Assembly: GCA_964459995.1 (NCBI GenBank)
Contig: CAYWOR010000009.1
Span: 36,891-100,890 of the forward strand
Direction: 5' to 3'
DNA length: 64,000 bases
Source: an uncultured bacterium
GTDB lineage: Bacteria > UBP14 > UBA6098
Made by a program: the position numbers and the translations under genes. The stretch's first letter is position 1; every line of letters starts with the position of its first letter. The notes below the pieces were generated by a model. The model was not told the origin of the DNA. It did not search any database and saw only the letters and a program-made list of their open reading frames with translations. Below are positions 10,387 through 48,695 of the stretch, in pieces.

Positions 10387-10415
10387 TTGACACTCGCGAG
10401 GCCGCGAAATATAAT
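10387..10415 (+). promoter_or_regulatory. consensus sigma70 promoter TTGACA-17-TATAAT
   Basis: TTGACA at 10387-10392, exact 17-nt spacer, TATAAT at 10410-10415; followed by an ~88-nt leader, a GGGGAGG RBS and the ATG at 10504. Confidence 0.7.
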
Positions 10416-10503
10416 TTACGGATAAAGCATCGGTTAAGTTTATCGATGTATTCCGTTAATTTGGAAGAATTGAAATGAAAAAAATATAGCAGGGGAGGTT
10501 TCG

Positions 10504-13500
10504 ATGGTGCAGAAACGCACCTCGGGGCTTATTGTAGCCCTAATGGTTCTTATCATCCTTGTTCCCGTCCTTTGGGGGCAAGAGTCCGGTAAAATCCGTG
10601 GGAAAGTTACCGAGAAAAATACCGGCGATCCTCTCGCCGGCGTCAATGTCCAGCTCCTTAGCGACAATGACATGATCCAAGGCGGCGCCGCCACCGATTT
10701 CGATGGCGAATATTTCATCCTCAATGCACGCGCCGGCATCTACAAAATCAAAGTCTCATATGTCGGCTACAACACAGTGATCGTCAATAATGTGATGGTT
10801 TCGACCGACCAAACCACCGTCATAAATGTTCAGATGGAGGACGAGGTCATTAAAGGCACTGAGGTTACTGTTTATGCCGACAAAGACGAAGTCAAGCTCG
10901 ACGTTACACACTCCGAAGCCAAAGTTACCGGCGACGACATCGCGAAACGTCCGGTTACGCGTATCGACGATGTTCTTGAAACGAAAGCCGGTATCGTCTC
11001 GCGCGATGGACAGATTCATATGCGCGGAGGCCGTTCTCGCGAGGTTACTTACATGGTTGACGGTATGCCGGTTACCGACCCGACCTATGGTGCGAAGGGT
11101 CTCGAAGTGGCTACCTCCAGTGTCCAGGAGGTTTCGGTGCAAACCGGAAGCTACAATGCCGAATATGGCGGCGCTCTCTCCGGTATCGTGAACATCGTTA
11201 CAAGAGAGGGTAGTGTTACCAATTTCTCCGGTAGCGCTATGTATCTTACCGACGACTTTATTCTCGACGAGCTGAATAAATTCTCAAGGAATTCTGACAG
11301 GTTGGAGTTCTCGCTTTCCGGTCCAGAACCAATCAGCACTTACATTCTTCCAGTGGTTGGTCTCGAGATTCCGCGTTCCCAAAGGGTAAGCTACTTCCTT
11401 TCGGTTACCGGCGAGAACACAGATACAAGATATCCGTATAACACCCTCTGGGATCTCGATGAGATAATGCCCACAAACGATCCCATCGGAACGCCCTACG
11501 CTATCGATTATGGCTGGTATGGTTTCTTCCCCGAGAGGCGTTATAACGAATACACAGCCACTCTCAAACTCAAACAGAAATTAACCCCCTCCATGTCCTA
11601 TACCGTTACCGGAACAGGCAACTGGACAAAATCCAGAAGCTGGAGTTGGGATTATATTTATGTTCCTCAGAACGCCCAGGTTGTCGAAAGAAAGGCTTAT
11701 CAGCTTTCTGCGAAGTGGGTTCACAACCTCTCTCCGAGGACATTCTACGAGATTCGTGCCGGATATTTCCGCACAGGTCTCGATTATGAGCCGGGTGGAC
11801 TAACACCGGATGCTTTTGCTGTAGATAGCTCGGTTTACGGTAGTCTCGATGACTGGATCGATATCAACGGCGACGGCGTTCCACAGGTCAGAGTCAAATG
11901 GTGGGACTCTAACTCCAACGGCCAGTGGGATTTCTGGGAGTATTGGGAACCGATTGTCGACTATGTTGACACAGTTTGGGCGGATGCCGCTCGAACAACC
12001 ATCGCATACCTCGATACGGTTTACATCGACGACAGGCCGCCCATGCTTGGCGAAGAGCCATGGTATGAGATTAACGGAAACAATGTCTTCGAGCCACGAG
12101 AGACCAATTTCAACAGCTATATTCTCGCAAGCCCGATGGACAGACCTGAACCTTATGTCGATGGCGAACCTTTCCGCGATGGAATGCCCTTTGGAATCGG
12201 ATTCTATGGCGAAAATGTGTATCCCGGCGGCCTTTTCATCGATGACACTCTTTGGGTCGATTTGAACGGCAATGGGATAAAGGAGATGGGCGAGTTTGTT
12301 TTCGGAACCTATTATTATAACAATCCTCTTGTTCCCGAGCAATATCACATAGCCCTCGAAGAAACGACCTGGAACGATATAAACGGCAACGGCCGTGTCG
12401 ATTGGGGCGAGTTTGTCGATGTCAACCGCGACGGTGTATATACTATTCGCAATGGTTATTGCGACTTCATCGACGCGAATGGAAACGGTGTTTATGATGT
12501 CGGCGAAGAGGGCGAGGCTTTCCTCGATCTCAACGGAAATGGCAAATATGACGGCCCCAATTACCAGCGTGATGAATGGGAGCCGTATATCGACCTCAAC
12601 GGCAACGGTAAATGGGACGGCACCGACCTCTTCCTCGACCGCGGTTTCGATCGTTATGCGGTATGGCATCGTAGAGAAACGAATATTCTAATGGCAAAAG
12701 CCGACCTTACGAGCCAAGTCGATAATAATAATCAGGTCAAAACCGGTGTTGAATTCCAGTATATCAACATGAATATGCAGGAAATCCAATACCCCGAGTT
12801 CAAATATGACCGCGAACCGGATGGCGGCCCTTATCAGGAACATGGTGTCTTTAGATCTTTCTACGAAAGGTCTCCTAAACAGTTCGCATGGTATATTCAG
12901 GACAAGATGGAATACGGCGGTCTAATCGCAAATATCGGCGTTAGGCTCGATGTGTTCCTTCAGGCGGGCGAGGTTTTGGAAGATTCCGTCTCGCAAGCCA
13001 TCGTTCAAGTTCTTCCGGAATACGACAAAATTTTCAAATCCCAAAGCACGCTTAGCCCGCGTATCGGTATGAGCTACCCGATTACGGACAAATCCAAATT
13101 GTTCTTCAGCTATGCACATCTGTATCAGCTTCCGGGATATGATAATTTCTATCAGATGCCTACTCAGGCGAGCCGCGCCGGAAGGCTTCTCGGTAACCCG
13201 AACCTCGGATATGAAAAGACCGTTACATACGAAATCGGCGTTGGATATGGTCTTACCGACGACTGGACTCTGGAACTATCCGGTTATTATAAGGATATTT
13301 ATGGCCTTCTGAATACGATCACTCAGAATCTCGGGCCAATTTCCCAGAGTGTTTATGAGAATCAGGACTATGCTCGAAGCAGAGGCATCGAAATGTCGAT
13401 TCGCAAAAGATATTCTGATAGATGGAGCTTAGATGCGAACTATCAGTATGCTTTCGCTTTCGGCAAATCCAGCTCGAACCGTAGCGGCTATGACGCCCTC

Positions 13501-14007
13501 TTCGATCAATCGGCGATTCCGCTTCAGGACTTACCTTTAAATTGGGATCAACGCCATATGATTAATCTCGTCGGCGATTATCGCGTCCAGGAAGGGGACA
13601 ACCCAATTGTATTCGGACTTAGAATTCCTGATAAATGGGGATTGAATCTGCTCTTCCAGTTTGGAAGCGGATTCCCATACACACCTACAGTCAAAAACCC
13701 GAATTGGGATCCTTCTCCGGGCGAGAAGGCTTGGGAACGTGAAAATGCTCTCAGAATGCCGCCGAACTACAATATCGATTTACGCTTCAACAAAGATTTC
13801 ACTATTGCAGGGATGGATTATTCATTCCTCATATGGGTTCAGAATCTCACAAACAGGCGGAATATCGAGTATGTTTATAGCGAAACCGGCGAGCCTGATG
13901 ACTGGAGTATAGACGACGGTCTAGGAAACGGGATGGATTATGCGTATAATCCTGAACATTGGAGCGCCCCGACTAACATAAGACTCGGCCTTCAGATAAG
14001 CTGGTAA
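10504..14007 (+). CDS. large outer-membrane plug-and-barrel protein (carboxypeptidase-regulatory-like domain + TonB-dependent-receptor-like plug/barrel) with internal Ca-binding-like DxNGNG repeats
   Basis: 1167 aa; signal peptide; CarbopepD_reg-like N-terminal domain (GKIRGKVTEKNTGDPLAGVNVQLL...YKIKVSYVGY); plug-like region (IHMRGGRSREVTYMVDGMPV); beta-barrel-like C-terminal half; five DxNGNG(K/R)xDxGE repeats in the middle. Confidence 0.6.
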   Translation: MVQKRTSGLIVALMVLIILVPVLWGQESGKIRGKVTEKNTGDPLAGVNVQLLSDNDMIQGGAATDFDGEYFILNARAGIYKIKVSYVGYNTVIVNNVMVSTDQTTVINVQMEDEVIKGTEVTVYADKDEVKLDVTHSEAKVTGDDIAKRPVTRIDDVLETKAGIVSRDGQIHMRGGRSREVTYMVDGMPVTDPTYGAKGLEVATSSVQEVSVQTGSYNAEYGGALSGIVNIVTREGSVTNFSGSAMYLTDDFILDELNKFSRNSDRLEFSLSGPEPISTYILPVVGLEIPRSQRVSYFLSVTGENTDTRYPYNTLWDLDEIMPTNDPIGTPYAIDYGWYGFFPERRYNEYTATLKLKQKLTPSMSYTVTGTGNWTKSRSWSWDYIYVPQNAQVVERKAYQLSAKWVHNLSPRTFYEIRAGYFRTGLDYEPGGLTPDAFAVDSSVYGSLDDWIDINGDGVPQVRVKWWDSNSNGQWDFWEYWEPIVDYVDTVWADAARTTIAYLDTVYIDDRPPMLGEEPWYEINGNNVFEPRETNFNSYILASPMDRPEPYVDGEPFRDGMPFGIGFYGENVYPGGLFIDDTLWVDLNGNGIKEMGEFVFGTYYYNNPLVPEQYHIALEETTWNDINGNGRVDWGEFVDVNRDGVYTIRNGYCDFIDANGNGVYDVGEEGEAFLDLNGNGKYDGPNYQRDEWEPYIDLNGNGKWDGTDLFLDRGFDRYAVWHRRETNILMAKADLTSQVDNNNQVKTGVEFQYINMNMQEIQYPEFKYDREPDGGPYQEHGVFRSFYERSPKQFAWYIQDKMEYGGLIANIGVRLDVFLQAGEVLEDSVSQAIVQVLPEYDKIFKSQSTLSPRIGMSYPITDKSKLFFSYAHLYQLPGYDNFYQMPTQASRAGRLLGNPNLGYEKTVTYEIGVGYGLTDDWTLELSGYYKDIYGLLNTITQNLGPISQSVYENQDYARSRGIEMSIRKRYSDRWSLDANYQYAFAFGKSSSNRSGYDALFDQSAIPLQDLPLNWDQRHMINLVGDYRVQEGDNPIVFGLRIPDKWGLNLLFQFGSGFPYTPTVKNPNWDPSPGEKAWERENALRMPPNYNIDLRFNKDFTIAGMDYSFLIWVQNLTNRRNIEYVYSETGEPDDWSIDDGLGNGMDYAYNPEHWSAPTNIRLGLQISW
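11860..12630 (+). repeat. coding repeat: 5-6 copies of calcium-binding-like DxNGNGxxDxGE (EF-hand/thrombospondin-type-3/dockerin-like) loops inside the barrel gene
   Basis: DINGDGVPQ, DLNGNGIKEMGEF, DINGNGRVDWGEF, DANGNGVYDVGEEGE, DLNGNGKYDG and DLNGNGKWDG are visible in the translation. Confidence 0.7.
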
Positions 14008-14011
14008 GGAA

Positions 14012-16366
14012 ATGAGTATATTGGAGCAAAAAATGAAAAGAGAAGTTACATTCATAATGCTTATCCTTCTTGGGGGGATGCTTCTATCCGGAGCACTCTT
14101 CGGCGAAGACGGCCCAGCTGGGCAAACATCGCCGAGAAGAAGGCCGGCGGTATCTACGCCGGCAGTGGATGAGAAGACTCACGATGTCGGTCAGCTCTTC
14201 TTTACAGTATCGAACTGGGGATTCTTTGGAAGCCAGAGAGGCGAAGATGATCCGAGATACTGCATCATCTACAAAACCGGCGCAAAAACCGGACAATGCA
14301 GGCCTGCCGCTGAATATCCCGGTGGATCGGGCTTAGAATATCTATTCCAGGGAGCACTATGGATTGGCGCTGTTGTTGCCGGCGATACCCTTGTGAGTGT
14401 CGGTGAAGACGGCTGGTTCCACGATGTAAACGAGCTCCTACCGGGATATAATCAGGCCACCGATACAATAATGATCAACTCGATATATCTTGATTCTTTG
14501 ATAGCTATCAGCGAACAGGATTTCGAGGCGATGATGACCGATACGGTGAAAAACCCAAGTATTGTTCCTACCGAGCATAGACCTATTGGTGTCGAAGTCC
14601 GTCAGCGTTCGGTGTCTTGGTCATATAACTATGCACGTAATTTCGTTATCATCGACTACTGGTTCAGAAACATTCGTGAAGAGAGGGATACCATTCGTGA
14701 CGCCTATGTCGGAATATATATCGACGGTGATGTCGGGCATGTGAATACTCCTCAATATGCTCAGGACGATGTTACGGGATTTGTGCAGTCATATTGGGAT
14801 CCAATCAAAAACGATTCAATTGTTGTGAATACTGCATGGTTGGCCGATAACGACGGCGATCCGACAAACGACGGCCGTTTCGACGAGTATTCGCCAACAG
14901 GTGCTTTGGGAATCGCACTTCTCAAAGTCGGTGAGAATCCTCTCGATGAACTAACATATTCTTACAACTGGTGGGTATCGAATACAAACGAAGATATCGA
15001 CTGGGGCCCGATGCACAGATATCCGCCGATGAGCTGGGACGGAACTCCTGAAACCGATATTATGAAATATCAGGTTATGAGCAACGGCGAGTTCGACTAC
15101 AACCAGACAGATATTCTCAATTATAGGGATCACCCTGATTGGGTTCCGCCTCCTTCGGATTTGGCGGAAAATATGAGATGCGGATACGATACGAGATTCC
15201 TATTCTCCTTCGGGCCGTTTGATATTCTCCCGGATGACACAATGAGGATAGCTATTGCGGTTATGGTTGCCGAGGATTTCCATCAGGATCCGAATGTTGT
15301 CGGCGATTGCCAACCGGAGAAATTCAATTATGCCGGGGTAGGTAAAACAACTCAGTGGGTTCGTGATGTTTATGGCGCTCCGAACGGCCTTGGTGTGCCG
15401 AATTATCAGGGACCTGTGCCGCCGCCGAAGCCATATTTCGAGGTCGAGACTTACGATAACAAGATCGACATCTATTGGAAATTCCAGGAAGCTATGAATT
15501 TCACCGACCCGATAACACTGCTTGAGGATTTCGCAGGTTTTAGGATTTACACCGCCGAAGCGAATCTCGAGAGCTACTATGTTCCGATCATCGAGTTCGA
15601 CAAAGTTCTCTTCACCGATTATAATTCACTCGATACCTTCCAGATTCAGGTCAGAACCGACGAGTTCCTCGCGCCGGAAGATTTTTCACCGGGCACATTC
15701 CCGACACTCGATACGACTTATACTTGGGATGGCGGAGAGGTTGTTGTGGACGTGTTCCCGAGGAAGAAATTCGGAACTAACTCCGGATTGCCGGAACCTG
15801 TCATGCGCAACGGAGAAGAATGGTTCAAATACACCCTTACAAACCAGCGCGCCGGGTCGGACATCTACATCTCTGTAACAGCATATGACTATGGCCAGCC
15901 CACACGCGATCTCGAATCGTTGGAATCGTCGAAAACTACGAACTATAAATGGGTGGTTCCGGTTGGAAGCGGTGAGACTTCAAAAGAGGTCTATGTTATT
16001 CCGAATCCCTATCGAGTAGATAATAACTACGCCGGTGCCGAGGGTCTCGACTGGGAAACGCCGGTCGGTCAGGTTTGGACGGAATATTCCCGCAAGATAA
16101 GATTCGCGAATCTTCCGCCAAGATGTATCATCCGTATTTATACGGTTGATGGCGACCTCGTAGATGAGATGACTCATAGCGACGATGGTTTCTGGCAAGG
16201 TGGAAAAGACAACAAAGACTCCGACAGAAAAGACATGGTAGGTGCCGAAGACTGGGATCTTATCAACAAAAACGATCAGGCCATAGCCAGCGGTATTTAT
16301 ATGTTCAGTGTCGAGAATGCTGAGACAGGCGAATATCAACTTGGTAAATTCGTTATTATTAAATAA
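14012..16366 (+). CDS. secreted protein with T9SS C-terminal sorting domain (T9SS cargo; function unknown)
   Basis: 784 aa; signal peptide; the C-terminal ~90 aa fit the T9SS CTD pattern (VIPNPYR...IRFANLPPRCIIRIYTVDGDLV...ASGIYMFSVENAETGEYQLGKFVIIK); Trp-rich body with no family recognised. Confidence 0.55.
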   Translation: MSILEQKMKREVTFIMLILLGGMLLSGALFGEDGPAGQTSPRRRPAVSTPAVDEKTHDVGQLFFTVSNWGFFGSQRGEDDPRYCIIYKTGAKTGQCRPAAEYPGGSGLEYLFQGALWIGAVVAGDTLVSVGEDGWFHDVNELLPGYNQATDTIMINSIYLDSLIAISEQDFEAMMTDTVKNPSIVPTEHRPIGVEVRQRSVSWSYNYARNFVIIDYWFRNIREERDTIRDAYVGIYIDGDVGHVNTPQYAQDDVTGFVQSYWDPIKNDSIVVNTAWLADNDGDPTNDGRFDEYSPTGALGIALLKVGENPLDELTYSYNWWVSNTNEDIDWGPMHRYPPMSWDGTPETDIMKYQVMSNGEFDYNQTDILNYRDHPDWVPPPSDLAENMRCGYDTRFLFSFGPFDILPDDTMRIAIAVMVAEDFHQDPNVVGDCQPEKFNYAGVGKTTQWVRDVYGAPNGLGVPNYQGPVPPPKPYFEVETYDNKIDIYWKFQEAMNFTDPITLLEDFAGFRIYTAEANLESYYVPIIEFDKVLFTDYNSLDTFQIQVRTDEFLAPEDFSPGTFPTLDTTYTWDGGEVVVDVFPRKKFGTNSGLPEPVMRNGEEWFKYTLTNQRAGSDIYISVTAYDYGQPTRDLESLESSKTTNYKWVVPVGSGETSKEVYVIPNPYRVDNNYAGAEGLDWETPVGQVWTEYSRKIRFANLPPRCIIRIYTVDGDLVDEMTHSDDGFWQGGKDNKDSDRKDMVGAEDWDLINKNDQAIASGIYMFSVENAETGEYQLGKFVIIK

Positions 16367-16377
16367 CCGGGAGAATC

Positions 16378-17304
16378 ATGAGACAACATAAATTAATCAT
16401 AGCCGCATTGATACTCCTTCCGATTGTCGCTTTCGCACAGGCGAAGGTGGGCACAGCGGCGGCCCAGTTTCTCGAGATTCCCGTCGGCGCACGTTCGGTG
16501 GGTATGGGCGACGCCTTCTTAGCTACAGCTAATGACGTCTCCGCGATATACTACAACCCCGCAGGGCTAACTAACCTTATGCGTAAAGAGGTTATGTTTA
16601 CGCATACAATGTGGCCTGCCGGCATAATGCACGATTTTGCGGCTTTTGCCATGCCAGTTCCTCAACTGGGCGGTGTAGTAGGCATTAGCGCAATCGGCCT
16701 TACAACAGGCGAGATGCGTGAGACCACTCCGGGACGGCCAGAAGGAACCGGAAGGACATTCACCGCAAGCGATCTCGCGGTGGGGGTTACATATTCACGA
16801 AAAATGACCGACCGTTTCTCGTTGGGCGTTACATGGAGATATGTGGGTGAGTATTACGCCGATGTCAAAGCTCATTCTTGGGCGATGGATATCGGAACTC
16901 TTTATCGCACACAGTTCAAGAATCTCCGTATCGGAATGAACTTCTCGAATTTCGGGCCGGATATTACCTTCCTTCAAACACCGTATCCACTACCTATGTC
17001 TTTTAAAATGGGCGTGGCGGCGGAAGTCTATGAAGCCGGAGCGCACAAAGTTACTCTTGGCGCTGAGGGAAGCCATCCAAACGACAATCTCGAGAAATTT
17101 CAAGTGGGGGCGGAGTATTGGTTCAATAACATGTTCGCAGTTCGCGGCGGTTATCGTTTCGGTGCATGGGATGCAGAGCGGTTCAATGCCGGTATTGGCG
17201 TTAGATTGCCGGTCGGAAATGTCATCACCAAGATAGATTATGCCTACAGCGACATGCAGGAATTGCTTAATGCTCACAAATTCACCCTTGGACTGGAATT
17301 TTAG
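16378..17304 (+). CDS. PorV/PorQ-family (FadL-like) outer-membrane beta-barrel protein, T9SS-associated
   Basis: 308 aa; signal peptide; the N-terminal motif AAQFLEIPVGARSVGMGDAF resembles PorV/PorQ (UPF0164) family proteins; ends in an aromatic residue (LGLEF). Confidence 0.45.
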   Translation: MRQHKLIIAALILLPIVAFAQAKVGTAAAQFLEIPVGARSVGMGDAFLATANDVSAIYYNPAGLTNLMRKEVMFTHTMWPAGIMHDFAAFAMPVPQLGGVVGISAIGLTTGEMRETTPGRPEGTGRTFTASDLAVGVTYSRKMTDRFSLGVTWRYVGEYYADVKAHSWAMDIGTLYRTQFKNLRIGMNFSNFGPDITFLQTPYPLPMSFKMGVAAEVYEAGAHKVTLGAEGSHPNDNLEKFQVGAEYWFNNMFAVRGGYRFGAWDAERFNAGIGVRLPVGNVITKIDYAYSDMQELLNAHKFTLGLEF

Positions 17305-17315
17305 GAGGCCCGAAT

Positions 17316-19031
17316 ATGAGAAAGACTAATATCATACTTATCATTCTGATGGTCGTTCTTGCTGGCCTTCTTATAACCGGTTGCGGCTATCAGGGCGATA
17401 TCGACACGAACCAGAAACCGATTATTAACCTCTACAATAATCCGGCTGACGGCGATACGCTTGGCGCCGCCCCGATTATGTATTGGCAAGCCTTCGACAC
17501 AGATGGCAAGGTTTATGTCTATGAATATATAATCCTGCCCCATCAGCAGGCCGGTAAAGGTCTCGCGACGAGTATTTGGAATCAGTATTACGAAAATCAA
17601 CAAAGCCTCGCCGATGTCGAATCTTTAGTAACACTCGATAATATGAAAATCCGCTGGACTCGTGTGGACAGTTCGAGCACCAGCGATACGATTTTCTTCC
17701 AGCATCTGCACCCGGATTCGGTTACTAAACACCTTTTCTGTGTTCGTGGAAAGGACAATGAGAACCTTTATTCGGATATCGTTTGCCGGACTTTCTATCG
17801 CAACAACCTTCCACCGGATTCATGTGTAATCGTTACCGATCCCTTCGATGGCGAAGAGTTCTGGATCCTTAAGGACACGACATACAGCTGGAAAGGTATC
17901 GAAGTAAGCTGGACAGGCGGCGATCCTGACCATTCTATTCTCCTCGAATACAGATGGCAACTCGAACAGGTTTCGACCGGTAATGTTGTTATCACTTCGT
18001 TAGTCGATGATTCTATCGGTGGAATTAACTCCGGTTATGATCCCACAGACGGTTGGGTTCGTAGCACGACTACTTATCTAAAAGGCGAGATTCCCGAAAA
18101 CGGCGACTATCGGTTCTGGGTTCAGGTTCGCGATGACGCCTTCTATCCCGGTGCCGCAGATACTGCTGTTATCACACTTGCTCAACCAGTATTCGACATT
18201 TCCGATCCAACTGTCAGACAGCAATATATAAACGGCACTTTCGTCCATAAGGTGCTTATAATCGACCAAAACAATTCAGTCGGTTATCCGGACTTTGCGA
18301 TTGTCAGTGCTTGGTATGATGGAGTTTTCGATAATCTCGTAAGTTCGAATGTAATACGTGATTACGAAATCATACGCCCCGCCAGTGCGTCCACGTGGAG
18401 TATCCCGCGCACCACTCTCGCAGACTACAGCATTATCTGGGTGCTCGACCAGGAGTATTTCAGCACAACTATGAAAATAGGCTCTGAGTATCTTCTTGAG
18501 CTTATGAATTATATTCAGGTTGGTGGAAGGCTTGTTTTCGACGGCAGGGATATGTTCAAAAACGAGCTCGATGTTTGGAGCCAGTCGCCGTCATATAACT
18601 ATTTCGGCATCGCTGAAGATGTCGAAGGTTCTGGTAACAAGATTTTTGCAAGAGCCGTTGCGAATACAAGTATTTCTGGGTTCCCCGATCTCTATGTAGA
18701 TCCTGCGAAGACAGTTGACGGTCTTTCGATAATCAACAGGGTTACTCGAATCGGTATGAGAGAGCCATCCTTCAGTGGAAGCCCTTATACTCAGCGCGTG
18801 TATAGTTTCGGTATCGTCGATACTGCAAGCGCAGATGATAAGAGAGATTTCGAGAATGTTCCGGTTGCGGTTCGTTTCGTAACACCGAGTTTCCGGTCAG
18901 CCTACTTCGGATTCCCGCTCTATCTTATGAATAATGATGAGGGGCAAGTCGAACAGGTAATCGAGAATACTCTCCAATTCATCAAAACGCAGTTGGATGT
19001 TCAGCCTGATTCGCTCGATATTCCGCTGTAA
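17316..19031 (+). CDS. hypothetical lipoprotein
   Basis: 571 aa; signal peptide with lipobox (LITGCGY); no recognisable domain; last gene of the cluster before the bidirectional terminator. Confidence 0.5.
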   Translation: MRKTNIILIILMVVLAGLLITGCGYQGDIDTNQKPIINLYNNPADGDTLGAAPIMYWQAFDTDGKVYVYEYIILPHQQAGKGLATSIWNQYYENQQSLADVESLVTLDNMKIRWTRVDSSSTSDTIFFQHLHPDSVTKHLFCVRGKDNENLYSDIVCRTFYRNNLPPDSCVIVTDPFDGEEFWILKDTTYSWKGIEVSWTGGDPDHSILLEYRWQLEQVSTGNVVITSLVDDSIGGINSGYDPTDGWVRSTTTYLKGEIPENGDYRFWVQVRDDAFYPGAADTAVITLAQPVFDISDPTVRQQYINGTFVHKVLIIDQNNSVGYPDFAIVSAWYDGVFDNLVSSNVIRDYEIIRPASASTWSIPRTTLADYSIIWVLDQEYFSTTMKIGSEYLLELMNYIQVGGRLVFDGRDMFKNELDVWSQSPSYNYFGIAEDVEGSGNKIFARAVANTSISGFPDLYVDPAKTVDGLSIINRVTRIGMREPSFSGSPYTQRVYSFGIVDTASADDKRDFENVPVAVRFVTPSFRSAYFGFPLYLMNNDEGQVEQVIENTLQFIKTQLDVQPDSLDIPL

Positions 19032-19049
19032 ACTCGAACCAAAGAAATC

Positions 19050-19088
19050 AAAAAAAAAGCCCGACCATTTGGCCGGGCTTTTTTTTTG
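19050..19088. terminator. bidirectional rho-independent terminator (A-tract, GCCCGACC/GGCCGGGC hairpin, T-tract)
   Basis: Sits between convergent genes: AAAAAAAAGCCCGACCATTTGGCCGGGCTTTTTTTTT. Confidence 0.8.
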
Positions 19089-24259: not shown

Positions 24260-24772
24260 ATGAGAAAAGCTATCCTAATCGCACTTCTGCTGATTGTTGC
24301 GGCGGCCTACAGCGCGGATTTCAAACTGGCTTACATCAATTCCGAACGCCTAAGAGAAGATTATGGCGCTTTCAAAGACGCTCAGGCGCAGTTCGACAAG
24401 GATGTTACAACTTGGGAAGCTCAAGCTGTCGAAAAGGAGCAAGAGCTTATCGATTTGCAAACCGAACTCGAACAGCAGTCACTACTTCTCTCCGAAGATA
24501 AGAAAAAAGAGCGCCTTCGCCTTATCGAGCAGAAAAAGCAGGAGTATCAAAGGTTTCTCTCGGAGATTTTCGGCACCGGCGGACGAGCAGAGCGCAGAAA
24601 CGCCGAGCTGACCTCGCCGCTTCTCGATAAGATCAATACTGCACTCGTAAACCTCGCCCAACGCGAAGGTTATGACCTTATTCTCGATGTTGCCGGCGGA
24701 AATGTCGCCTATATCGACGAAAACCTCGATATTACCGACAGGCTTCTCGAAGAGCTAAATTCCAGCAGATAA
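24260..24772 (+). CDS. skp: OmpH/Skp periplasmic chaperone
   Basis: 170 aa; signal peptide; coiled-coil-rich OmpH family; immediately upstream of lpxD. Confidence 0.8.
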
Positions 24773-25806
24773 TGCAAGCCAGCGAACTCGCGCGAAGGCT
24801 TGGCGGCGAATTTGTCGGACCGGGAGACCCCGATGTGCGCTCGATTAAACCCCTCGGGGAAGCTAACGCCGGTGATGTGGCTTTTTTGCACAATGTCAAA
24901 TATAAACCGCAGTTGGAGACAACCAAAGCATCATGCGTGGTTTCCGCCGCCGACTGCATTTATGAAGGCAGAAAATACACCGCGATAATCCATCCCGAGC
25001 CGCACATGGCGATGGCACTCGCTGTGGATATACTATATCCGGAATTGATTCCAGAACCGGGAGTTCATACCTCTGCGGCAGTCGATAACAGCGCGAGAAT
25101 TGGCGATAGAGTCTTTATCGGCCCTAGTGTTTTCGTGGGTGCCGATTCAGAAATAGGGGCAGGGACTATTATCGAGTCCGGTTGCTCGATTATGCCCGAT
25201 GTGCGAATTGGCGAAAACTGTCATATCTACCCAAATGTTGTAATATACCCTAAAACCTGCCTTGGAGGGCGTTGTATCATTCATTCCGGCACGATACTCG
25301 GCTCCGACGGTTTCGGGTTTGCGCCAACAAATGACGGCATTCTGAAGATCCGCCAAATTGGAAGCCTTGTTATCGAGGACGATGTCGAAATCGGCGCGAA
25401 TTGCACAATCGACCGTGGCACATTCACCGAAACCCATATCGGACTCGGCACTAAGCTCGATAATCTCGTGCATATCGCTCACAACTGCCGAATCGGCAAA
25501 TACTGCCTTATTGCCGCTCAGACAGGCCTTGCCGGAAGCACCCATCTTGGCGATAGGGTCATTGTCGCTGGACAGGTGGGTTTTGCGGGGCATCAGAAAA
25601 TAGGGGATAATTGCATTTTCTTCGCGAAAAGCGGAATCAACGGCGATATCGAACCCGGAAGTCAGCTTTTCGGGTATCCAGCAAAACCAAGGCTTCAGGC
25701 GCATCGTGATAACGCCTATGTGTCGCGGCTCGGCGAACTCTTCAAAGAGGTCAAGGAGCTTGCCAAAAAGATTTCCCGAATCGAGGATAATCAGGAAAAG
25801 AGGTAA
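24772..25806 (+). CDS. lpxD: UDP-3-O-acylglucosamine N-acyltransferase
   Basis: 344 aa; LpxD N-terminal domain followed by hexapeptide left-handed beta-helix repeats; its start overlaps the skp stop. Confidence 0.85.
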
Positions 25807-25807
25807 A

Positions 25808-27391
25808 ATGAGATTGTTTTCATCCATTTTATTAATGAGTCTCGTTGTCGGCGCGATTTTTGCCCAGCCGTCAAATACTGCGGAATTCAACCATCGAGGA
25901 GTCGCGATTGCCGGTTGCGAGGCGGCTATCGACGGCGAAGGTAGTTTTCTCGACATTTTCGATTTCTCGAATGGCGAGAATCCGGCGGCATCACATTTCA
26001 ACGAGGCCTATCGACTTCGCGCGGACCGTATAGACAAAATCGGCGGCGCGGATAGATTCGCTTTCGATATCGGGTTCAGAACCCTCGAATATCCCGGGCC
26101 AACCGAAGACGGCGAGAAAAGATCATGGTATTGGATAGACGGTATCGGCAGGATTATGGTCGATAAGGGTTTCGGCGAGAGCTTCTCCACACGCTTTCAG
26201 TTCAACGGCGGCTACAACACAATGCGCAATTCCTTCTGGGGGCTTAGATATAGGCACAACTACACAGCCGCTGTTCCGGACTGGTCGAATATATCCAAAC
26301 GCGCATCTACAACCGGTGCGGCGGCATTATTGCCACTCGGCGAGTTCTATTTTAATTATCATTCGCCCTTTGGCCTTTCGGTAGGCGCGGGCGGAGGTTA
26401 TGGATTCAGCGAGTTCGAAGACCTCTACTATTCCCGCGGGTGGCATACCCTATCGAAGGGCAATGTTACGTCATATGCTGTCAAAATGGGCGGCCGTTTC
26501 GCAGTCCCCGAGTTTGAGCAATATGGCGCTATAGGCGTTTCCTACGGCATCAAGGGCGGCAAAGTCCGCAATGAAGATGGCGATGACTACGATATGTTCG
26601 ATACCGGCGATGACATTATCGGTTTTCAGGCAGAATTTGGCTACCCCGGTTATGTCCGAGGAGCGTTCGGATACGATAAATCCGCTCTGAACGAGGATTT
26701 CTTCACCTCTGCCACCGATACAATTGCCGAAACCTCCGAAGACGAGGTCGCGCGGACTTCCTTCGGGGTTCAGGTTTACGGCGATGAGTTCCGTGTCCCT
26801 GTTACACTCGGATTCAGAACTGAGTCGTATGCCACCGAGGGCAGGTCGATTAATGCGAGCACTGTTACCAATGAAAATAAACTCTCCTGGGGTGACACGC
26901 GAATCGGACTTTCTGCCGAGCCTATCGAGGGTTGGACTATAGCCGCGGAATACAAAAAAGGCTATAACAAGATCGAAAGCGGATCGAGCCTTATATCCAC
27001 TAATCAGGACGCTCAAGTCGATTTATCGGCCATTGCGGGTGGTATGGAGATATATGTTGTGCCGGAATTCGGGATCCGCTTTGGTTTCGAGAATTTTTCC
27101 CTCGAACCGGATTCGATTTACAAGAGTGAATTTGGTTCTTTCGATGTCTATTATGGCGGCGAGGGCGATTATGTCGCGCCGTATTTTACGCCGTCTTCGA
27201 GATATGGCCTCGTTCCTGTTCAGACGCGTGGAAATGCCCTGTCGTGGGGGTTTGTTTTCCGCCTCGATGATCAACGGCTTATCCTCGAGCTATCTGGTCG
27301 GCATGTTCTCGCGAGCGAACCACAGGTTTATCGAGACAATGCCGGAACGCTTCACGAGGGGTATGTTGGCTTAACATATTACTTGAAGTAA
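25808..27391 (+). CDS. hypothetical secreted / outer-membrane protein
   Basis: Starts at MRLFSSILLMSLVVGAIFAQP (signal peptide), 1 nt after the lpxD stop; Gly/Tyr/Phe-rich beta-rich composition; no family recognised. Confidence 0.45.
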   Translation: MRLFSSILLMSLVVGAIFAQPSNTAEFNHRGVAIAGCEAAIDGEGSFLDIFDFSNGENPAASHFNEAYRLRADRIDKIGGADRFAFDIGFRTLEYPGPTEDGEKRSWYWIDGIGRIMVDKGFGESFSTRFQFNGGYNTMRNSFWGLRYRHNYTAAVPDWSNISKRASTTGAAALLPLGEFYFNYHSPFGLSVGAGGGYGFSEFEDLYYSRGWHTLSKGNVTSYAVKMGGRFAVPEFEQYGAIGVSYGIKGGKVRNEDGDDYDMFDTGDDIIGFQAEFGYPGYVRGAFGYDKSALNEDFFTSATDTIAETSEDEVARTSFGVQVYGDEFRVPVTLGFRTESYATEGRSINASTVTNENKLSWGDTRIGLSAEPIEGWTIAAEYKKGYNKIESGSSLISTNQDAQVDLSAIAGGMEIYVVPEFGIRFGFENFSLEPDSIYKSEFGSFDVYYGGEGDYVAPYFTPSSRYGLVPVQTRGNALSWGFVFRLDDQRLILELSGRHVLASEPQVYRDNAGTLHEGYVGLTYYLK

Positions 27392-31803: not shown

Positions 31804-34800
31804 TTAGAACTTCAGTTCGACCCAAATGCTTACATCTCGAACATGTGTGATCTGTTCGATTCTGCGGTTGTTCGTGTCTATCCATTTTAATTCGAGACCG
31901 CCGCGAATATTTCTGCTGAAATTGTAACTTGCCGAAGGTGTTATGCTCCATTCGACATCGTCACGGGAGCGAGAAACCTCGCCGGTGGCTCCTTCGACCC
32001 ATGATTCTGTGATACGTGTGGTGTTTTGAACAGTAAGAGACAAAGTAAGCTGGTTCTCGAATTTCAGAGTGCCAATAATCGGAAGCTTGAATCCTTTCGA
32101 GCCGCGAATGGAATATCCTGCTGTAATTTTGTGCGACAGCTCGTAGTTATGACGAATATTTACCGATGTTGCCGAATAAGTTCTCTCGTGTGAATTGCGG
32201 AGGTTCGTCGAATAATCGGTGCTGATTCCGGGTTTCCATGTCATGTTTATGGACACGAGCGGATTGAAGCTGTGCGTTAAGACATCGTTTTTAAGGGCAT
32301 TAGATTCATAATTCTCGCGGACTTCATAAGAATAATTAGAATTCGCACGGGCGTTGCTCGCGAGTGTTTTAAATGGCGGAATCTGTCCGAGACCGTTCCA
32401 GTTAAGGGTAACATCCGGGAAAGTAGTTTGGATCTGTTTTGTATTGTTTGTGCTGATAGTAACATTTTTAACGTAATTGTATCTCGCCTGCAAAGTCATT
32501 TTGAAAGGTAGGCGCGTGCCGGTGCGGATATTCCTCTTTTCAGTCGTAGTATGGCTCTCTATCTGGCTTGTAGCGGCAAGAGAGTCAGTAACTCTGTGAA
32601 CACCGGGGTCGGTTGTCAATGAAAGTTGATACCACAAATCAGGCCTTCCGGCGAGATTTGGTATTTGACGGCGATCGTCGAATTGCCAGTCGAAATTCAA
32701 ATCGTCGAGATTGTCGAAAAGAGGTTTTGTAATAGCAAGAGCTTTTTTAAGTCCGCCTGTGGATTCACGAGAACCTGATGGCGCCGGCTGTTCCGGAGTA
32801 GGGGGTTCTTCTTCACCTTGCCTGCCGCCTCTATCTCGCGGAGTTTCCCTTCGAGGAGGCATGGGTGACGATCCGGAAGTTGTTCCGCCGATTGCGCTTC
32901 CAAGCTGTTTCCACTTTATCCCCCACGAAGCTCTGAAAGAGCGGTTTAAGTTCACCACTCCGAACCTGTCGCGATATCTCGCCGGATCGGTATCCTCTTT
33001 GTATTCGCCGCGGATTTCGTAGTTTTGCGAGAGCCAGGATATCATTGCCGGTGTATATCGAACATTTTGGCTGATAGATTTTGACAGGGGATTGCCAATC
33101 ACAACCGGATGTCTCCATCTAAAATGGGCTGAATCGCCGATATCGCGTTTCATTGAGAGAATAAAGCCGGTGGTAATCGGGGGCATGATATTTGTGTTTA
33201 GCGTCGCTGTGTGTGTTAGCGATTTTTCGTTGCTGTATGTTCGCGTATCATATCGGTCGAATCGCTCTTCCTCGCGACCGGTAAGATTTGTTTCAAAACG
33301 TAAGGCTGTTGGAGCGAAATTCAGCGAAAGGTCGAGTAATCTCGGAACCGAGGGGTCTTCGATTCTCGCGCCGGGTCTCGATGGTGTGCCCTTTGGGGGC
33401 GATATTGGCGATGAGGGTTTTCCCTCTACCGAATCGACTTCGGTGCGTTCATCGTCCTTTTTATCCGCGAACATCCATCGAGTTAGATGGACATTCCAGT
33501 TTTTAGAAGTCGGCGTGAGATCATAAGTCTGCCGAAGGTTCCAATTTCTGCTTATACGAAGTGGATATGTCGGGCTAATCTCACGGGTTTCTCCGGCGCT
33601 AACGCTATGAGAAAGCCTCGAAAGAGTAAGACCTATCAGCCAATGCGGATCGCGAGGTTTTAAGGTCTCGGTTATGTTCACCGAATACTGCTTGGTAGTA
33701 GTAGTTTCCTGCTGACGAAGCGTATCCGGAACGCTGATGTCCGAGCCTGTTTTAAGTCTTGGAACGGAGATTCGCCGAGAGAAATTGGAAGACACAGGCA
33801 GATTCAGCCCCCACCTGTCAGGGGCGAATTTGTGTGGCTTGAAACCGCCGGAAAGGCTTAGCACCGTTTCAGTCCTTCCGGTGCCCACTCGCTCGTTAAG
33901 GCCGTGGAATTCGCTATCTTTACGTTCGAGAGTTCCGCTAAAATCGGCGAGGTCGGCAAAATTCATCGAGAATGTCGCTTTTTCCGCCCAGCCGGGTTCT
34001 TTGCGGACATTTGTAACGCGAAGCTCATCGACCCAAATCTCACCGGAAATTGGACGGAATCGGTAGGGATTAATAACACCCATCTCAAAATAACGAACAT
34101 CGGTCAAAGTGGGGGAGCCGTTGATAATATACCAACCGTTTTCCGTTCGATAGATTGGATCGATGTTTGGTATGCTCGTATCAGAGATTGCAGTCTGATA
34201 TTCGTTCTTGAAGGCTGTCATCTCGGGGAAATCCATCATCACCCTGTTTGATTCGACCCAGCCGTCCTGAAGGTAAGTTCTGTATTCGTATGTATTATTA
34301 GCATCCCTGCCGAGTTTGAAGAAGAACAAAACCGAATCGTCGCTGACATGCTTGTTGAAATAAACCCACATATCGAGCGCTTGATAGAGAGTGAGATCCA
34401 TCGATTCGCCCGCGAAAGTTGTGCGGAAACACGAAGCGACAGATTGGCCGGGAACTTTGTCATAGAGTATCGCAAGCGATTGCTCCTGGCTCATAATGCC
34501 GGTTGTAACAGAACGCTCTCCGGTAACACCGGGGGGTGAGACATAATCGCCGTCTTCATGAGTATTTTTAGTGGCGATTTCGATATTGGCGGTTTTCTCT
34601 TCCCACTTATTTCCGACAAGCTCGATTTGGGCAATCTGAATTTTCGAGTATCTTTCGACACCATCCACCCAAATTCGAGAATATCTGATCCTCTCCCAAT
34701 CCGGCGAACCTACTTCCTTCCGCCGATGAACCTTGCCATCTGGGTTATGAGTATAAACAGAGTCCTGAATAGGTATTCGATACAGCCTCCAATATTCGTC

Positions 34801-37800
34801 TGTGCCGTCCTCGACAATATTACGCGTGTTGGGCACCTCGAATTCGGAGCTTGAAAGATCGATTGTGAACTCGAAATAGTCGTTATTAGTATCGAGGAAA
34901 TTGTTGCCGTTGAGGTCTTCGGTATCTGGCTTTGTTCCGCCTTCGGGGTCTCTGCCGTTGCCTTCAGTGCCGTTGATTTTAGAATAATCGTTCGGATTAT
35001 CTTTGCTCCAGTGCCAGTTGTCGCCGTTAGGGTCTGGATTGTTCACCGGATGGTATCCAGGTTCGAGGCTGTCGGGAAGGCCATCGAGACCTACATCCTC
35101 GGCGGCGCTTAGGATGCCGTCGCGGTAACCTGCGACTTCGAGGTCTTCCGAGTTCAGAACGCCGTCGCCGTTTATATCCTCGTTTATCGAGCCGAAATTA
35201 AAGTGCAGATGTCCCTCATTTCCGCGCACCCAGACTTCGAGGAATCTCGATTTGCTCTGGTCGTGGTAGCCGGTGGTTATATATCTCATAACACCAGCCC
35301 ATTTATCTGTTCCACCGCCGACAGAATCCGGGTCGAATTCCAAAACGAGGACATTGGTTCTCGAATCTTCGGTTGCTACGTCCTTCTGAGGCCATATCTC
35401 CTTCACTGCGACCTTGTCGTAGGGATTATACCAAATTAGGTGCCCGCGATCATCCTGTGTCTTTCCCTGTGGTGCGGAGGATTTTTTCCATGCTGTTCGA
35501 CGAATTTCGAGATTGAAAGTGCTTCTCGACCCTTCAAAATCGTCGATATAAGCCTCGTCCTTTGTGTTCGGATTGCTGATAACCTGCGCAACTTCGGCTG
35601 TGAAACGTATCTTCGATGCTGACTCGGTATGAATTAGGGGGATAGCATTGACCGCATCCGTAATGAATGGCACTTCATAGTCGAGCTGAAGGTCGGCATC
35701 CCAAATGAAAGCCTTGCCGGGTTCACGCCCGATTCGAGGCCTGCGCTCTGCGCTCGATGTGGATTTGTAAATAGCTGTTCCGCCGATCCAGCTTTGTTCG
35801 CCGAAACGATATTCGGCTCTTGCTCCGAGAAGAGCTTTCTGTTCCGGCATGAAGAAAGGCTCGTAATCGAAGTCTATAGTAAGCGTTGTATTGGGGTTTA
35901 AAGCTTCATCGTTGAGGAACGTGATCTGCCCGATTTGATAATCCACACGGTAATCTATACCGCTTTGAAGCCTTCTTCCGCCAAGTTTCACAATTTCGGA
36001 ATTCTCGATAATATTAAATCTGCCGAGGCTCATAGGATTCTGACGCTGTCCGGTTTTCAAACGAATGATGTATTGATGATCCTGTGCGATTTCTGAGCTT
36101 GTCGATGAGGTATACATCGCGCGGACTCTGGGTGTGTTCGGCCCAAGATTCATGCGTGTTGAAGCCATTTCGGCTTCGCTCGGATTAAAAGGATGGAGAA
36201 CGGGAAAAATCAGATGGCCGTCTTGCGGATTAACCATGACCGCATCAACTCTGCCATCGGATTCGTAATTTCCCATTGTGTTAAGCTCGTCGAGACCGAA
36301 AACTTCGAGGAAATTCCTCGGCGGCGATTGTGTTGTATCGCTTCTAATATCGTTTGTTACTGGATTTAGGAATATTTCGACTTCGAGATTATCGGTGTTG
36401 ATGTTTGTCGAACTTAGATAATAGACATTGCGCCAGGTTTGTTCCCAGCAGGGGTTGTTCGACCTCATCGCCGGCGGTCTGATTAAATTTAGCTGTAAGG
36501 TTGTGTCTCCGGATGTCGGGTCGATATACAACCCTCCGACCGTGTCCTGCGTGCCGTCCGCGCGGCGTATAATGTAACTGCATGCGATAGCGTGGTTGTT
36601 GCTCAGAGGATTCGACCCGGTCATATAGAACCATCCGAGCCTTCGGTAAATCTGATAATACTCTTGGCTGATTGTGTGGAAATAGCCTCTGTGACCGACA
36701 TCACTCACATATGGATCGCCGGGATTGGGCATCGCAACACCTTCTATCGCGCCATTTGCGATATTATTCGACGAAATTTGGTCGTCCACCCAAAGTGTGA
36801 ATTCGACGATGCTGTCGCCGGCCATATATGGGTTTGCCGTAACAGGCCAAACGAAGGGATAAATGAAACTCGAATCTATCCAAAAATAGGTCAGGTCGAG
36901 GTAATTATATTCTCTGATGTCGGTCGGTTGTGTAGATGTGTTGCCGGTAATTGTGGTTGTTTCGTGTTGGCCTTTTTCTTGGCTTGCTATGGCTGTTATC
37001 GCCCAATCGCCGATCTGAAACTGGCTCTTAATGCCGAAAAGCCCTTCGACCCTCTCCGAATAGCCCACGAAAGTCGCACCGGGAAGCGAAAGATTTGTGT
37101 TTCCCGCTTCGATTTTCTGGATTATATCGTCCTCTTCGCCGGTAAATGCAATGTTGATAGTATTCTCGAGGTCTGTTTCCCTTTTCGAGTCCTGATCGAC
37201 CGTAACACTTATCTTGCTTCCGATAGTTCCGGTAATCGTGAAACGGCTTTCCTGCTCCATCTGAAGGCTTGGAAACTTGCTCTGATTTGGCCCGAATTCC
37301 TGTCCGGTAATCCATGTGCTTCTGCCGGAAAGGGTTATGCGGCGATATCCCGATACACGAAGCCCCGCGCCGCCCTCGCCGATGATGTCACGCACCCCTT
37401 TTGGAAAATCGATGGGAATCTCGAAACTCAAGCCGTCCCTTCGAGCTTTTGCTTCCTCCTTTGAGCCTTCCCATGCGTTATTGCGCCAATATCTATTGGC
37501 CATGAACAGCTTGAATTGATCAATGGGAACTACTCTCGAGGCATATATCTGCCTGTCGAGAACCCACTCGTCAATAACAACAAAGCCGTCGCCCCAGAAT
37601 ACGACCGCAGAATATCGATGATTAAGGGTCGAATAATCTAATAAAGCCAGCGTAGTGTCAGTTTCGCCAATTCCGGAGAAATCATATAACCCCGGCTGAA
37701 AACGATTTTCGAGGGGGAGGAAGAATCTGCCTTCCTGATGCAGGGAAATATCGACGCCTTGCGCGAAAATTCCGGCGGGAACAAGCGCAAAGAGTAACGC

Positions 37801-47805: not shown

Positions 47806-48695
47806 TGTTCGATTTCCATATCGTCTATTTCGGAGGATTTTTCGCGTTTCCACGCGATGCGAAGAATATCAGCGCTGTTCAATTCCTCAGCTACGTTGTT
47901 TCTATCGATATTCCCGGAAATCTCGACCTCGATCTCTGTTTGATCTTTCTCGGGTCCGCGGTCGCTTCTTACTCGCTTGATTTTATATACGATGTCATCG
48001 TCGTCGAGAAGATCTTTAATCTGGGTTAATGTTGCATCCGGATTCGTTGTTCGGACACGCAGGTTCCAATTCCAATTTGTTGAGAATAATGATTTTTTGA
48101 GACCTTTTGGCATATGTTCGAAAAGGAACACCATCGCGACGATATAGAGCGTTACAATAATCGCCAAAGGATACAGCCCGACTCCGCATGCCATGCCCAC
48201 ACCGAGCGCTATTACCAGCGAACTTGCCTCTTTAGGGGATTTAAGTGAATAACGATAGCGCACGATCGACGCCGCGCCCATAAGCCCAAAAGCGCGTGCA
48301 ATCTGGCTTCCGATAATCATCATCATAAGCGCCGCGGCAATCGAGAGAACGATATGCGCCTCGGTGAAATCCATCTGTGCCTTCCCGCCGCCGCTCCGGT
48401 AGCTTATTAGCCCCGATAATACGGATGTAAGCAGAAGGGTTGCGAGAATATTTAGTGCACTGCTCCAGTCAGTGTTCCAGAGCGGTTTCAGAGGAGCTCC
48501 GCCCTCCGCCGGAGGGCCTTCGGATCGGGTCTGTCCCGATGATGAGGAGAAAATCGAATCGACAGTCTGCGCGAGCAGAGTAGTTGAGATATCAATTCTG
48601 TCGAAAAGCTTCCCATGACCAAGTAAAGCAATCATCGCGATAATCGCGAGAATTATCAAAGCAGTTCCCCAGAAACGCGAATGGATTAATTTCAT
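47802..48695 (-). CDS. DUF4956-like integral membrane protein
   Basis: 297 aa; 4-5 TM helices followed by an acidic C-terminal soluble tail; resembles the DUF4956 family that co-occurs with VTC/polyphosphate-related genes; ATGA overlap with the upstream gene. Confidence 0.45.
   Translation of the reverse strand: MKLIHSRFWGTALIILAIIAMIALLGHGKLFDRIDISTTLLAQTVDSIFSSSSGQTRSEGPPAEGGAPLKPLWNTDWSSALNILATLLLTSVLSGLISYRSGGGKAQMDFTEAHIVLSIAAALMMMIIGSQIARAFGLMGAASIVRYRYSLKSPKEASSLVIALGVGMACGVGLYPLAIIVTLYIVAMVFLFEHMPKGLKKSLFSTNWNWNLRVRTTNPDATLTQIKDLLDDDDIVYKIKRVRSDRGPEKDQTEIEVEISGNIDRNNVAEELNSADILRIAWKREKSSEIDDMEIEQ

Follow-up and report, generated by a model that had tools for sequence, protein, structure and literature searches.

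A conserved operon joins a TonB-dependent transporter to a PorV/PorQ-family barrel, a lipoprotein, and an optional predicted type IX cargo in uncultured bacteria outside Bacteroidota

Introduction

[quoted passage not shown] This question is raised by four genes, designated g1 to g4, in a 64,000-nucleotide stretch of DNA (hereafter the window) from an uncultured bacterium of the lineage UBP14/UBA6098 (GenBank assembly GCA_964459995.1, contig CAYWOR010000009.1, positions 36,891 to 100,890), which are assigned to a TonB-dependent transporter (g1), a secreted protein with a T9SS-type C-terminal domain (CTD; g2), a PorV/PorQ-family barrel (g3), and a lipoprotein (g4). Nearly all that is known of T9SS biology and of TonB-dependent uptake comes from Bacteroidota, in which the two are treated as separate systems; here they are genetically joined. 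The original prediction, made from the letters of the window alone, held that this combination is not a described T9SS or Sus arrangement, in agreement with our literature search, which found no paper joining Zixibacteria and T9SS and no paper on a PorV-like barrel linked to a TonB-dependent transporter. The parts are all of known kinds, and it is their conserved combination that appears to be undescribed. We report the conservation of the operon in hundreds of genomes from uncultured bacteria, and we tentatively propose that it encodes a platform for nutrient capture and uptake.

Results

Conservation of the operon and its invariant core

A scan of GTDB species representatives for g2 gave at least 579 g2-encoding stretches, and the four window proteins were compared by tblastn with 82 loci (loci are cited below by labels such as L001). 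The named records are mostly of Zixibacteria, with UBP14, Fermentibacteria, and Eisenbacteria also represented, and many other records are labelled only 'bacterium' or 'Ignavibacteria'; by the names of its homologues, the window itself falls in Zixibacteria. About 32 distinct loci, spread over the four named groups, are of the cluster type, g1-g2-g3(-g4), in which the g2-g3 unit is often duplicated in tandem; at three cross-phylum loci, identity to the window proteins is 31–34% for g1, 32–36% for g2, and 47–50% for g3. The array type consists of two to five tandem g2 paralogues with no g1 or g3 within 7 kb. In 18 array loci, a major facilitator superfamily (MFS) transporter is immediately adjacent, often together with an M29 aminopeptidase and a protein of 375 aa that belongs to no known family; an MFS_1 gene lies on the opposite strand beside the arrays of L035, L040, L041, L052, L053, L055, L056, L060, L063, L066, L073, L075–L078, L080, and L081. 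The g2 arrays beside an MFS importer are thus a second conserved context of the g2 family.

In about 35 loci found through g2, a g1-type transporter lies 5' of every g3 homologue that has upstream sequence, and an independent sampling through g3 homologues gave six loci, in each of which a g1-type transporter precedes g3 and a lipoprotein gene follows it; L084, L085, and L087, three of the six, carry no g2. Because the g3-sampled loci keep the transporter and the lipoprotein while three of them lack g2, the invariant core of the operon is g1, g3, and g4, and g2 is an optional module present in zero, one, or two copies. The link of a TonB-dependent barrel to a PorV-like barrel, to which the original prediction had drawn attention in the window, therefore holds across Zixibacteria, UBP14, Fermentibacteria, and Eisenbacteria. 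The accompanying claim, that g2 and g3 form a pair, stands in so far as the two genes are adjacent in cluster loci, but not in a strict sense, g2 being optional, multi-copy, and missing from three clusters.

Transporter, barrel, and lipoprotein

The predicted g1 product begins with a signal peptide, followed by a CarboxypepD_reg-like N-terminal domain (PF13620, aa 31–112, above cut-off), a TonB-box-like strand, a plug (PF07715, aa 132–227, 46.5 bits against a cut-off of 23.9), and a barrel (TonB_dep_Rec_b-barrel, PF00593, aa 624–1115, 99.8 bits against a cut-off of 27) that carries a large insert. With the plug followed by the 22-strand barrel, g1 is by its domain content a TonB-dependent transporter, as had been supposed from the plug, the barrel, and the carboxypeptidase-regulatory-like domain. 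At the position of the TonB box, the pattern [IV]-x-[VI]-x-[AG]-x-[RK] occurs in most of 19 aligned g1 orthologues, and the corresponding strand of g1, EVTVYADK, would be expected to bind TonB; 18 of the 19 end in W or F. Orthologues are 31–35% identical to g1 over the full length, and that in L083 48.5%. The N-terminal domain is of the SusC kind and resembles PDB entry 6ytc, a solved domain of a TonB-dependent receptor. Membership of the SusC/RagA family itself was considered and set aside: model TIGR04056 gives 81.7 bits against a cut-off of 368.25, over the N-terminal 170 aa only, and no SusD/RagB gene is adjacent. The Ca-repeats that the original prediction saw in g1 are eight D-x-[DN]-x-[DN]-G motifs, all within the barrel insert, and each of three checked orthologues (L001–L003) has six or seven. 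The loops are EF-hand/dockerin-like and putatively bind Ca2+, and the insert is probably an extracellular loop, because the turns beside its flanking strands are short (SPR, DNNN). A weak match to the Oar-type barrel (PF25183) was also noted in g1.

The g3 product passes the general PorV/PorQ family model (NF033709, 226.9 bits against a cut-off of 90) and the Pfam PorV model (34.9 bits against 27), and aligns to Flavobacterium johnsoniae PorV (6h3i_F) at E 1.2e-8. It is about 90 aa shorter than that protein; residues 9–199 align well, together with a weak C-terminal stretch. All equivalog models fail, namely those of PorQ (NF033711, 113.9 bits against 220), PorV (NF033710, 94.3 bits against 250), and PorV2 (83.8 bits against 325), and the PorP/SprF model (TIGR03519) gives 16.5 bits against 90.55. 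Judged by these models, g3 is a FadL-like outer-membrane barrel of the PorV/PorQ family, in keeping with the class proposed for it before, but of neither named equivalog. The same holds for its relatives: 854 clusters (50% identity) lie within E 1e-30 of g3, and among the 148 nearest representatives none reaches E 1e-60 on any equivalog model, whereas the general family model does.

The g4 product has the lipobox LLITG-C23, whose Cys is invariant in 17 homologues and present in seven other cluster variants. A structure model shows two Ig/PKD-like sandwiches and a C-terminal α/β domain of the class I glutamine amidotransferase (GATase1)/ThuA type. An amidotransferase role of this domain was rejected, since the Cys-His-Glu triad is missing, with no invariant Cys or His; the domain is thus, as far as conserved residues tell, non-catalytic. 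No Pfam or NCBIfam family matches g4. The earlier description of g4 as a lipoprotein of no known family is accordingly borne out by the lipobox Cys and the empty family searches, but g4 does have relatives: direct comparison of seven cluster variants found a divergent homologue 3' of g3 in each, the one in L083 being 30% identical over the full length (E 2e-62), and the downstream lipoproteins all share Cys...NQKPI...NIPP...WxGTDxDG.

The secreted protein g2

A hydrophobic N-terminal signal (Sec signal peptide) is visible in g2, and is followed by a β-supersandwich (aa ~50–470), a middle β domain (aa ~475–650), and the C-terminal T9SS-type domain. An AlphaFold2 (AF2) monomer model with a predicted local distance difference test (pLDDT) score of 82 likewise consists of a large β-supersandwich, a middle β domain, and a C-terminal β-sandwich. 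The fold of the body in this model is a galactose-mutarotase-like supersandwich, a carbohydrate-associated type, with no β-propellers, and the protein carries many invariant Trp and Asp residues. No Pfam domain was found in g2 and no Pfam or NCBIfam family for its body, and a PDB sequence search gave nothing for the whole protein and only noise for a profile of the tail. The family counts over 1000 proteins, none with a functional name or a Pfam family; in the source records, members of the g2 and g4 families bear only the name 'hypothetical protein' or a generic T9SS sorting-domain label.

That g2 ends in a T9SS-type domain, as originally predicted, is less apparent from the window protein, whose tail stays below the TIGR04183 cut-off (12.5 bits against 23) but matches the PorZ model at 1e-7 in the part that covers the CTD, than from its family. 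The tail of the L001 orthologue reaches 24.6 bits with TIGR04183, and among 30 g2-family tails TIGR04183 matches 19 at E<=0.01 (best 1.3e-7), the PorZ CTD 26 (best 3e-10), and the PorU C-terminus 16. The tail is unusually well conserved, equalling the main domain (41–48% identity) and exceeding the middle domain (24–30%). By these comparisons the tail is homologous to T9SS CTDs and forms a divergent subclass of its own, confined to g2-family proteins in about 1.1 Mb of related loci; no other carriers were found in that material, in which the S8 peptidases next to the clusters give weak echoes of 13–31 bits. Export of g2 by T9SS is very probable, because the family has CTD-type tails and the window contains both the SprA translocon and type A cargo (described below). 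The likeness to PorZ that had been suggested is confined to the tail, for which the PorZ CTD is the best match. For the body it fails, the model showing a supersandwich in place of propellers, and g2 was rejected as a PorZ orthologue, the PorZ model NF052228 giving 26–31 bits against 260 in the tail only and two β-propellers before the CTD being absent.

The type of tail appears to track the genomic context in proteins with the g2 N-terminal domain, as seen in one metagenome-assembled genome (MAG). In the MAG that contains L014, a second protein (P0090, L089 4665–7616) joins to the g2 N-terminal domain (42% identity, aa 14–493) both FlgD_ig and a type A CTD of the classical kind; it is a stand-alone paralogue with no transporter or PorV-like gene nearby. 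Among g2 tails proper, GKFVIIK is the usual ending of copies directly 5' of g3 and GKLVII(K/M) that of array copies, which fits context-specific tails but may reflect only the phylogeny of the paralogues, and it is not used here as support.

Two side observations concern the g2 family. An S8 subtilase with a T9SS CTD lies 3' of many clusters, for example at L088 13961–16948 (+) and L084 14738–17638 (+), and shows a weak resemblance to the g2 supersandwich over a short segment (13–31 bits; 25.6% over 207 aa by tblastn). At L086 5467–7982, on a long-read contig, g2 is split into three consecutive open reading frames (ORFs) of 269, 255, and 316 aa, which points either to a pseudogene or to frameshift errors.

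Homogenization of the barrel gene

In five genomes with a duplicated g2-g3 unit (L001, where g3 at 12576–13499 was compared with 16152–17075, and L019, L021, L026, and L042), the g3 copies are 98–100% identical in DNA, while the g2 bodies are 55–70% identical, and in three of the five the identical tract extends from g3 into the part of g2 that encodes the CTD. The pattern resembles gene conversion that is limited to the barrel gene and, at some loci, takes in this end of g2. Such concerted evolution of g3 suggests that one common barrel, in some cases along with the tail that would bind it, is kept uniform while the g2 modules diverge.

T9SS components in the window

The link of the cluster to T9SS is strengthened by a gene for the outer-membrane translocon SprA/Sov in the same window; because its match to TIGR04189 is far above the cut-off, this organism, although outside Bacteroidota, has the T9SS channel. 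Three tandem paralogues combine a CotH kinase domain and a lamin-tail domain with a classical type A T9SS CTD. Within the 64 kb, SprA is the only part of the T9SS machinery found, and no PorV-family gene besides g3 was found.

Organization of the operon

The ORFs are exactly as originally predicted, the four genes for exported proteins lying on the same strand with gaps of 4, 11, and 11 nt (Table 1). The promoter, previously called textbook consensus, matches in 12 of 12 positions, for which we calculate a chance expectation of about 0.004 per 10.5-kb stretch. It is not a chance match, because CTTGACAC-N16/17-ATAT(A/T)(A/T)T is kept in five orthologous loci amid flanking intergenic DNA that is not kept. 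The ribosome-binding site (RBS) is also conserved among the five loci, the rest of the leader is not, and a small inverted repeat within the promoter spacer was set aside as an element because it is unconserved among orthologous loci. No Rfam family or riboswitch was found in the g1 leader, and Rfam and tRNA scans of the whole window were empty. The bidirectional terminator predicted after g4 has an 18-bp stem and separates g4 from a convergent GspE-like gene. Upstream of the operon are a hybrid histidine kinase and LipB, and downstream are the convergent GspE-like ATPase, GlmS, and GlmM; with its own promoter and terminator and with flanking genes that are housekeeping or unrelated, the operon is a self-contained unit.

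Table 1 Positions of the operon, its parts, and T9SS-related genes in the window
Feature	Position	Strand	Details
Sigma-70-type promoter	10387–10415	+	TTGACA-17-TATAAT; 12/12 consensus match
5' leader	10416–10503	+	~85 nt; RBS GGGGAGG at 10492–10498
g1	10504–14007	+	1167 aa
TonB-box-like strand of g1	10861–10884	+	EVTVYADK, aa 120–127; between N-terminal domain and plug
Barrel insert of g1	11860–12609	+	~250 aa, aa 453–702; eight D-x-[DN]-x-[DN]-G loops
g2	14012–16366	+	784 aa
C-terminal domain of g2	15989–16363	+	aa ~660–784; ends in nearly invariant GKFVIIK
g3	16378–17304	+	308 aa
g4	17316–19031	+	571 aa
Bidirectional intrinsic terminator	19049–19088		18-bp stem, A- and T-runs at sides
SprA/Sov T9SS outer-membrane translocon	31804–37833	-	2009 aa; TIGR04189 691.6 bits, cut-off 200
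Three tandem CotH kinase/lamin-tail/type A CTD paralogues	50696–56826	-	

Discussion

The results described above lead us to propose, as a reading that we hold to be possible though somewhat short of an even chance, that the operon encodes a nutrient capture-and-uptake platform in which a T9SS-delivered g2 is docked through a retained CTD. In the predicted mechanism, g1 would import its substrate with energy supplied through TonB, most likely a glycan or glycoconjugate fragment, although peptides may also be considered, and the dedicated barrel g3 and the lipoprotein g4 would be its constant partners in the membrane. The g2 protein would be exported by Sec and then through the translocon SprA, its PorZ/PorU-like CTD would stay uncleaved and bound to the g3 barrel, and its supersandwich would thereby be held at the cell surface beside g1. 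There it may harvest the substrate, as SusD and other surface lipoproteins do for the SusC of Bacteroidota, with paralogous g2 modules interchangeable on one g3 barrel. The physical complex, the retention of the CTD, the surface exposure, the direction of transport, and the substrate are what we infer. The proposal draws on the full TonB-dependent transporter anatomy of g1, the strict g1-g3 linkage, the PorZ/PorU-like nature and the conservation of the g2 tail, the homogenization of g3, the supersandwich of g2, the change of CTD type with context, and the genes for SprA and classical type A cargo in the window. As to the tail, PorZ and PorU are, according to a review, the two T9SS substrates whose CTDs stay in place, bound to PorQ and PorV (PMC10202324). 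A role in nutrient acquisition is favoured over one in the secretion machinery because the g2 family adjoins importers in both of its genomic settings, the MFS transporter and M29 aminopeptidase beside the arrays pointing in the same direction.

Several observations weigh against this proposal. A strict 1:1 anchoring of g2 by g3 is not universal, because g2 is missing in L084, L085, and L087, L051 lacks a g3 within 7 kb, a single g3 goes with two g2 genes in L032 and in L038, and most g2 paralogues stand in arrays far from any g3; the 1:1 pairing of the genes is therefore weakened as an argument for a stoichiometric anchor. No CAZyme (carbohydrate-active enzyme) genes or dedicated regulators were found beside the cluster, and a consensus promoter and a place beside lipB suggest a housekeeping operon more than an inducible utilization locus. 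Nor is the supersandwich fold proof of sugar binding, being shared by YidC. Finally, g3 may simply be the general shuttle of the organism, the coverage for other PorV genes being the 64 kb of the window.

This last point is the main rival explanation, in which g3 serves as the lineage's general PorV shuttle for all type A cargo and its operon mates are incidental, with no dedicated complex. An organism with SprA and classical type A cargo needs a PorV, for which g3 is the one candidate in the window, and the conservation of g3, its fixed position near lipB, and its consensus promoter would suit such a function; the failed PorV and PorQ equivalogs are weak evidence to the contrary, if, as we assume, those models are tuned to Bacteroidota. 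However, a shared shuttle would not be expected to be duplicated in tandem with g2 and homogenized, nor does this explanation sit well with the strict linkage of g3 to a g1-type transporter and a g4-type lipoprotein across four phylum-level groups, or with the shortness of g3 and its limited alignment to F. johnsoniae PorV, and we consider it unlikely, if still deserving of attention. A different role in secretion would follow if g2 and g3 were the functional equivalent of the PorZ-PorQ attachment pair, with g2 binding a surface glycan or lipopolysaccharide (LPS) and handing it to the sortase, so that the cluster would belong to the T9SS machinery. In the PorZ-PorQ and PorU-PorV pairs of Porphyromonas gingivalis the CTD is retained and bound to the barrel (PMC10202324), and the cluster resembles them in several ways: a T9SS-type protein of about 780 aa whose CTD is most similar to those of PorZ and PorU is encoded beside a PorV/PorQ-family barrel of about 300 aa (784 and 308 aa in the window), PorQ gives the highest score of g3 among the equivalogs, and a sugar-type fold could bind the LPS glycan. 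In contrast, PorZ has two β-propellers where g2 has a supersandwich, the equivalog models of PorZ, PorQ, and PorV all fail, and g2 and g3 share an operon with a transporter and a lipoprotein in a lineage outside Bacteroidota. A gene that is absent from some clusters and elsewhere multiplied into arrays of up to five copies by MFS importers and peptidases is also unlike a single-copy core component, so that this explanation appears quite improbable.

The transporter itself might serve purposes other than uptake. Oar of Myxococcus is a TonB-dependent-type transporter used for secretion, and Oar-type proteins have the CarboxypepD_reg N-terminal domain, plug, and barrel of g1 with no SusD partner; to our knowledge, no description ties Oar to a PorV-like barrel or T9SS cargo, and g1 is set apart from Oar by the Ca-loop insert, a peculiarity of the g1 group. 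The products of g1, g3, and g4 could form a structural or export complex of the envelope, either a Ca2+-stabilized anchor of a g2 surface layer or an Oar-like secretion transporter. The weak Oar-type match in g1, its Ca2+-type loops, the consensus promoter and housekeeping-like position by lipB, the glycosyltransferase and PMT_2 genes near several loci, and the diverging multi-copy g2 paralogues, which resemble surface-layer or variable surface proteins, would all be compatible with this. Since a plug and TonB box normally serve import, however, and g2 has its own T9SS signal while its arrays are tied to an MFS importer and an aminopeptidase, we regard such a complex as improbable. The last alternative, an ordinary Sus-like polysaccharide utilization locus in which g2 or g4 is the SusD-like lid, has in its favour the N-terminal domain, TonB box, and plug of g1, arranged as in SusC-like proteins. 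It is refuted by the SusC score, by an empty search for the SusD family in g2 and g4, and by the folds of g2 (all-β) and g4 (β and α/β), SusD being helical, and no CAZymes and no SusR, hybrid two-component system (HTCS), or extracytoplasmic function (ECF) regulators are adjacent; the chance that it is right is minimal, and the original view that no SusD-like partner is present is upheld.

The proposed capture platform is nevertheless worth comparing with SusC/SusD (RagA/RagB), utilisomes, and BtuB-BtuG, with which it would share the logic of capture at the surface and import through a barrel, as well as a transporter with a CarboxypepD_reg-like N-terminal domain and accessory proteins of carbohydrate-type folds. 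It differs in that g1 lies outside the SusC family, no SusD is present, the g1 barrel bears an insert with Ca-type loops, and the proposed partner g2 would be delivered by T9SS and held by a barrel, whereas theirs are lipid-anchored. A cargo gene clustered with its own PorV-like barrel gene has a parallel in type B CTD cargo and PorP/SprF (SprB-SprF of F. johnsoniae). The type B CTD is thought to be uncleaved, with the cognate barrel anchoring the cargo (PMC10202324), and the same review suggests that cognate PorV-like barrels possibly shield CTDs from cleavage. The g2 tail, however, is nearer to type A/PorZ than to type B (CHU_C E 0.05–0.17), g3 is of the PorV/PorQ and not the PorP/SprF family, and type B pairs are undescribed as linked to transporters. 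A structural precedent for g3 as an adaptor between a barrel and a surface lipoprotein is provided by BamG-BamH of the Bacteroidota β-barrel assembly machinery (BAM), in which a 14-stranded FadL-like barrel, packed on a second barrel as a fixed adaptor, uses its extracellular loops to hold a surface lipoprotein (PMC12578637); that second barrel is BamA and not a TonB-dependent transporter, and the function is different. Neither g3 nor g4 was found to be homologous to BamG or BamH.

If the proposed complex is real, cognate PorV-like barrels would be more than T9SS machinery and would offer surface proteins a general docking site, the g2 and g4 families would gain a functional context, and it would be explained how phyla of the Fibrobacterota–Chlorobiota–Bacteroidota (FCB) group that lack SusD equip their large transporters. 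The question why some CTDs stay uncleaved could also be studied on a concrete pair, the g3 barrel and the g2 tail (GKFVIIK). A wider generalization, that FCB-group bacteria outside Bacteroidota have a SusD-independent, T9SS-dependent 'utilisome', in which the transporter is permanently coupled to a PorV-like adaptor and a lipoprotein and interchangeable g2 modules are plugged in through a retained PorZ-like CTD, would represent a new use of the PorV/PorQ fold, but must at present be called doubtful.

Neighbouring genes

The flanks of the cluster are shared in several Zixibacteria (L001, L084, L085, L087, and L088), with lipB upstream and, in four of these five loci, a sigma-54 activator with tetratricopeptide repeats (TPR) upstream of the cluster. 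Downstream are an opposite-strand PMT_2/TPR glycosyltransferase-like gene and an S8 peptidase, followed in three loci by an M6 peptidase, and most of these S8 and M6 peptidases show a T9SS-CTD match. In the Fermentibacteria locus L003, a glycosyltransferase and radical-SAM cluster lies downstream instead.

Elsewhere in the window, the ORF next to the CotH paralogues (48692–50677, -, 661 aa) resembles a dTMP kinase in its N-terminus only, and two further ORFs have no Pfam or NCBIfam match (59408–63856, -, 1482 aa; 25706–27391, +, 561 aa). Proteins of about 670–690 aa with a transglutaminase-like core are encoded at 39198–41270 (-) and 44060–46069 (+), the first also containing DUF3857. About 5 kb 3' of the cluster (24260–25806, +), Skp/OmpH is directly followed by LpxD, a standard envelope-biogenesis pair.

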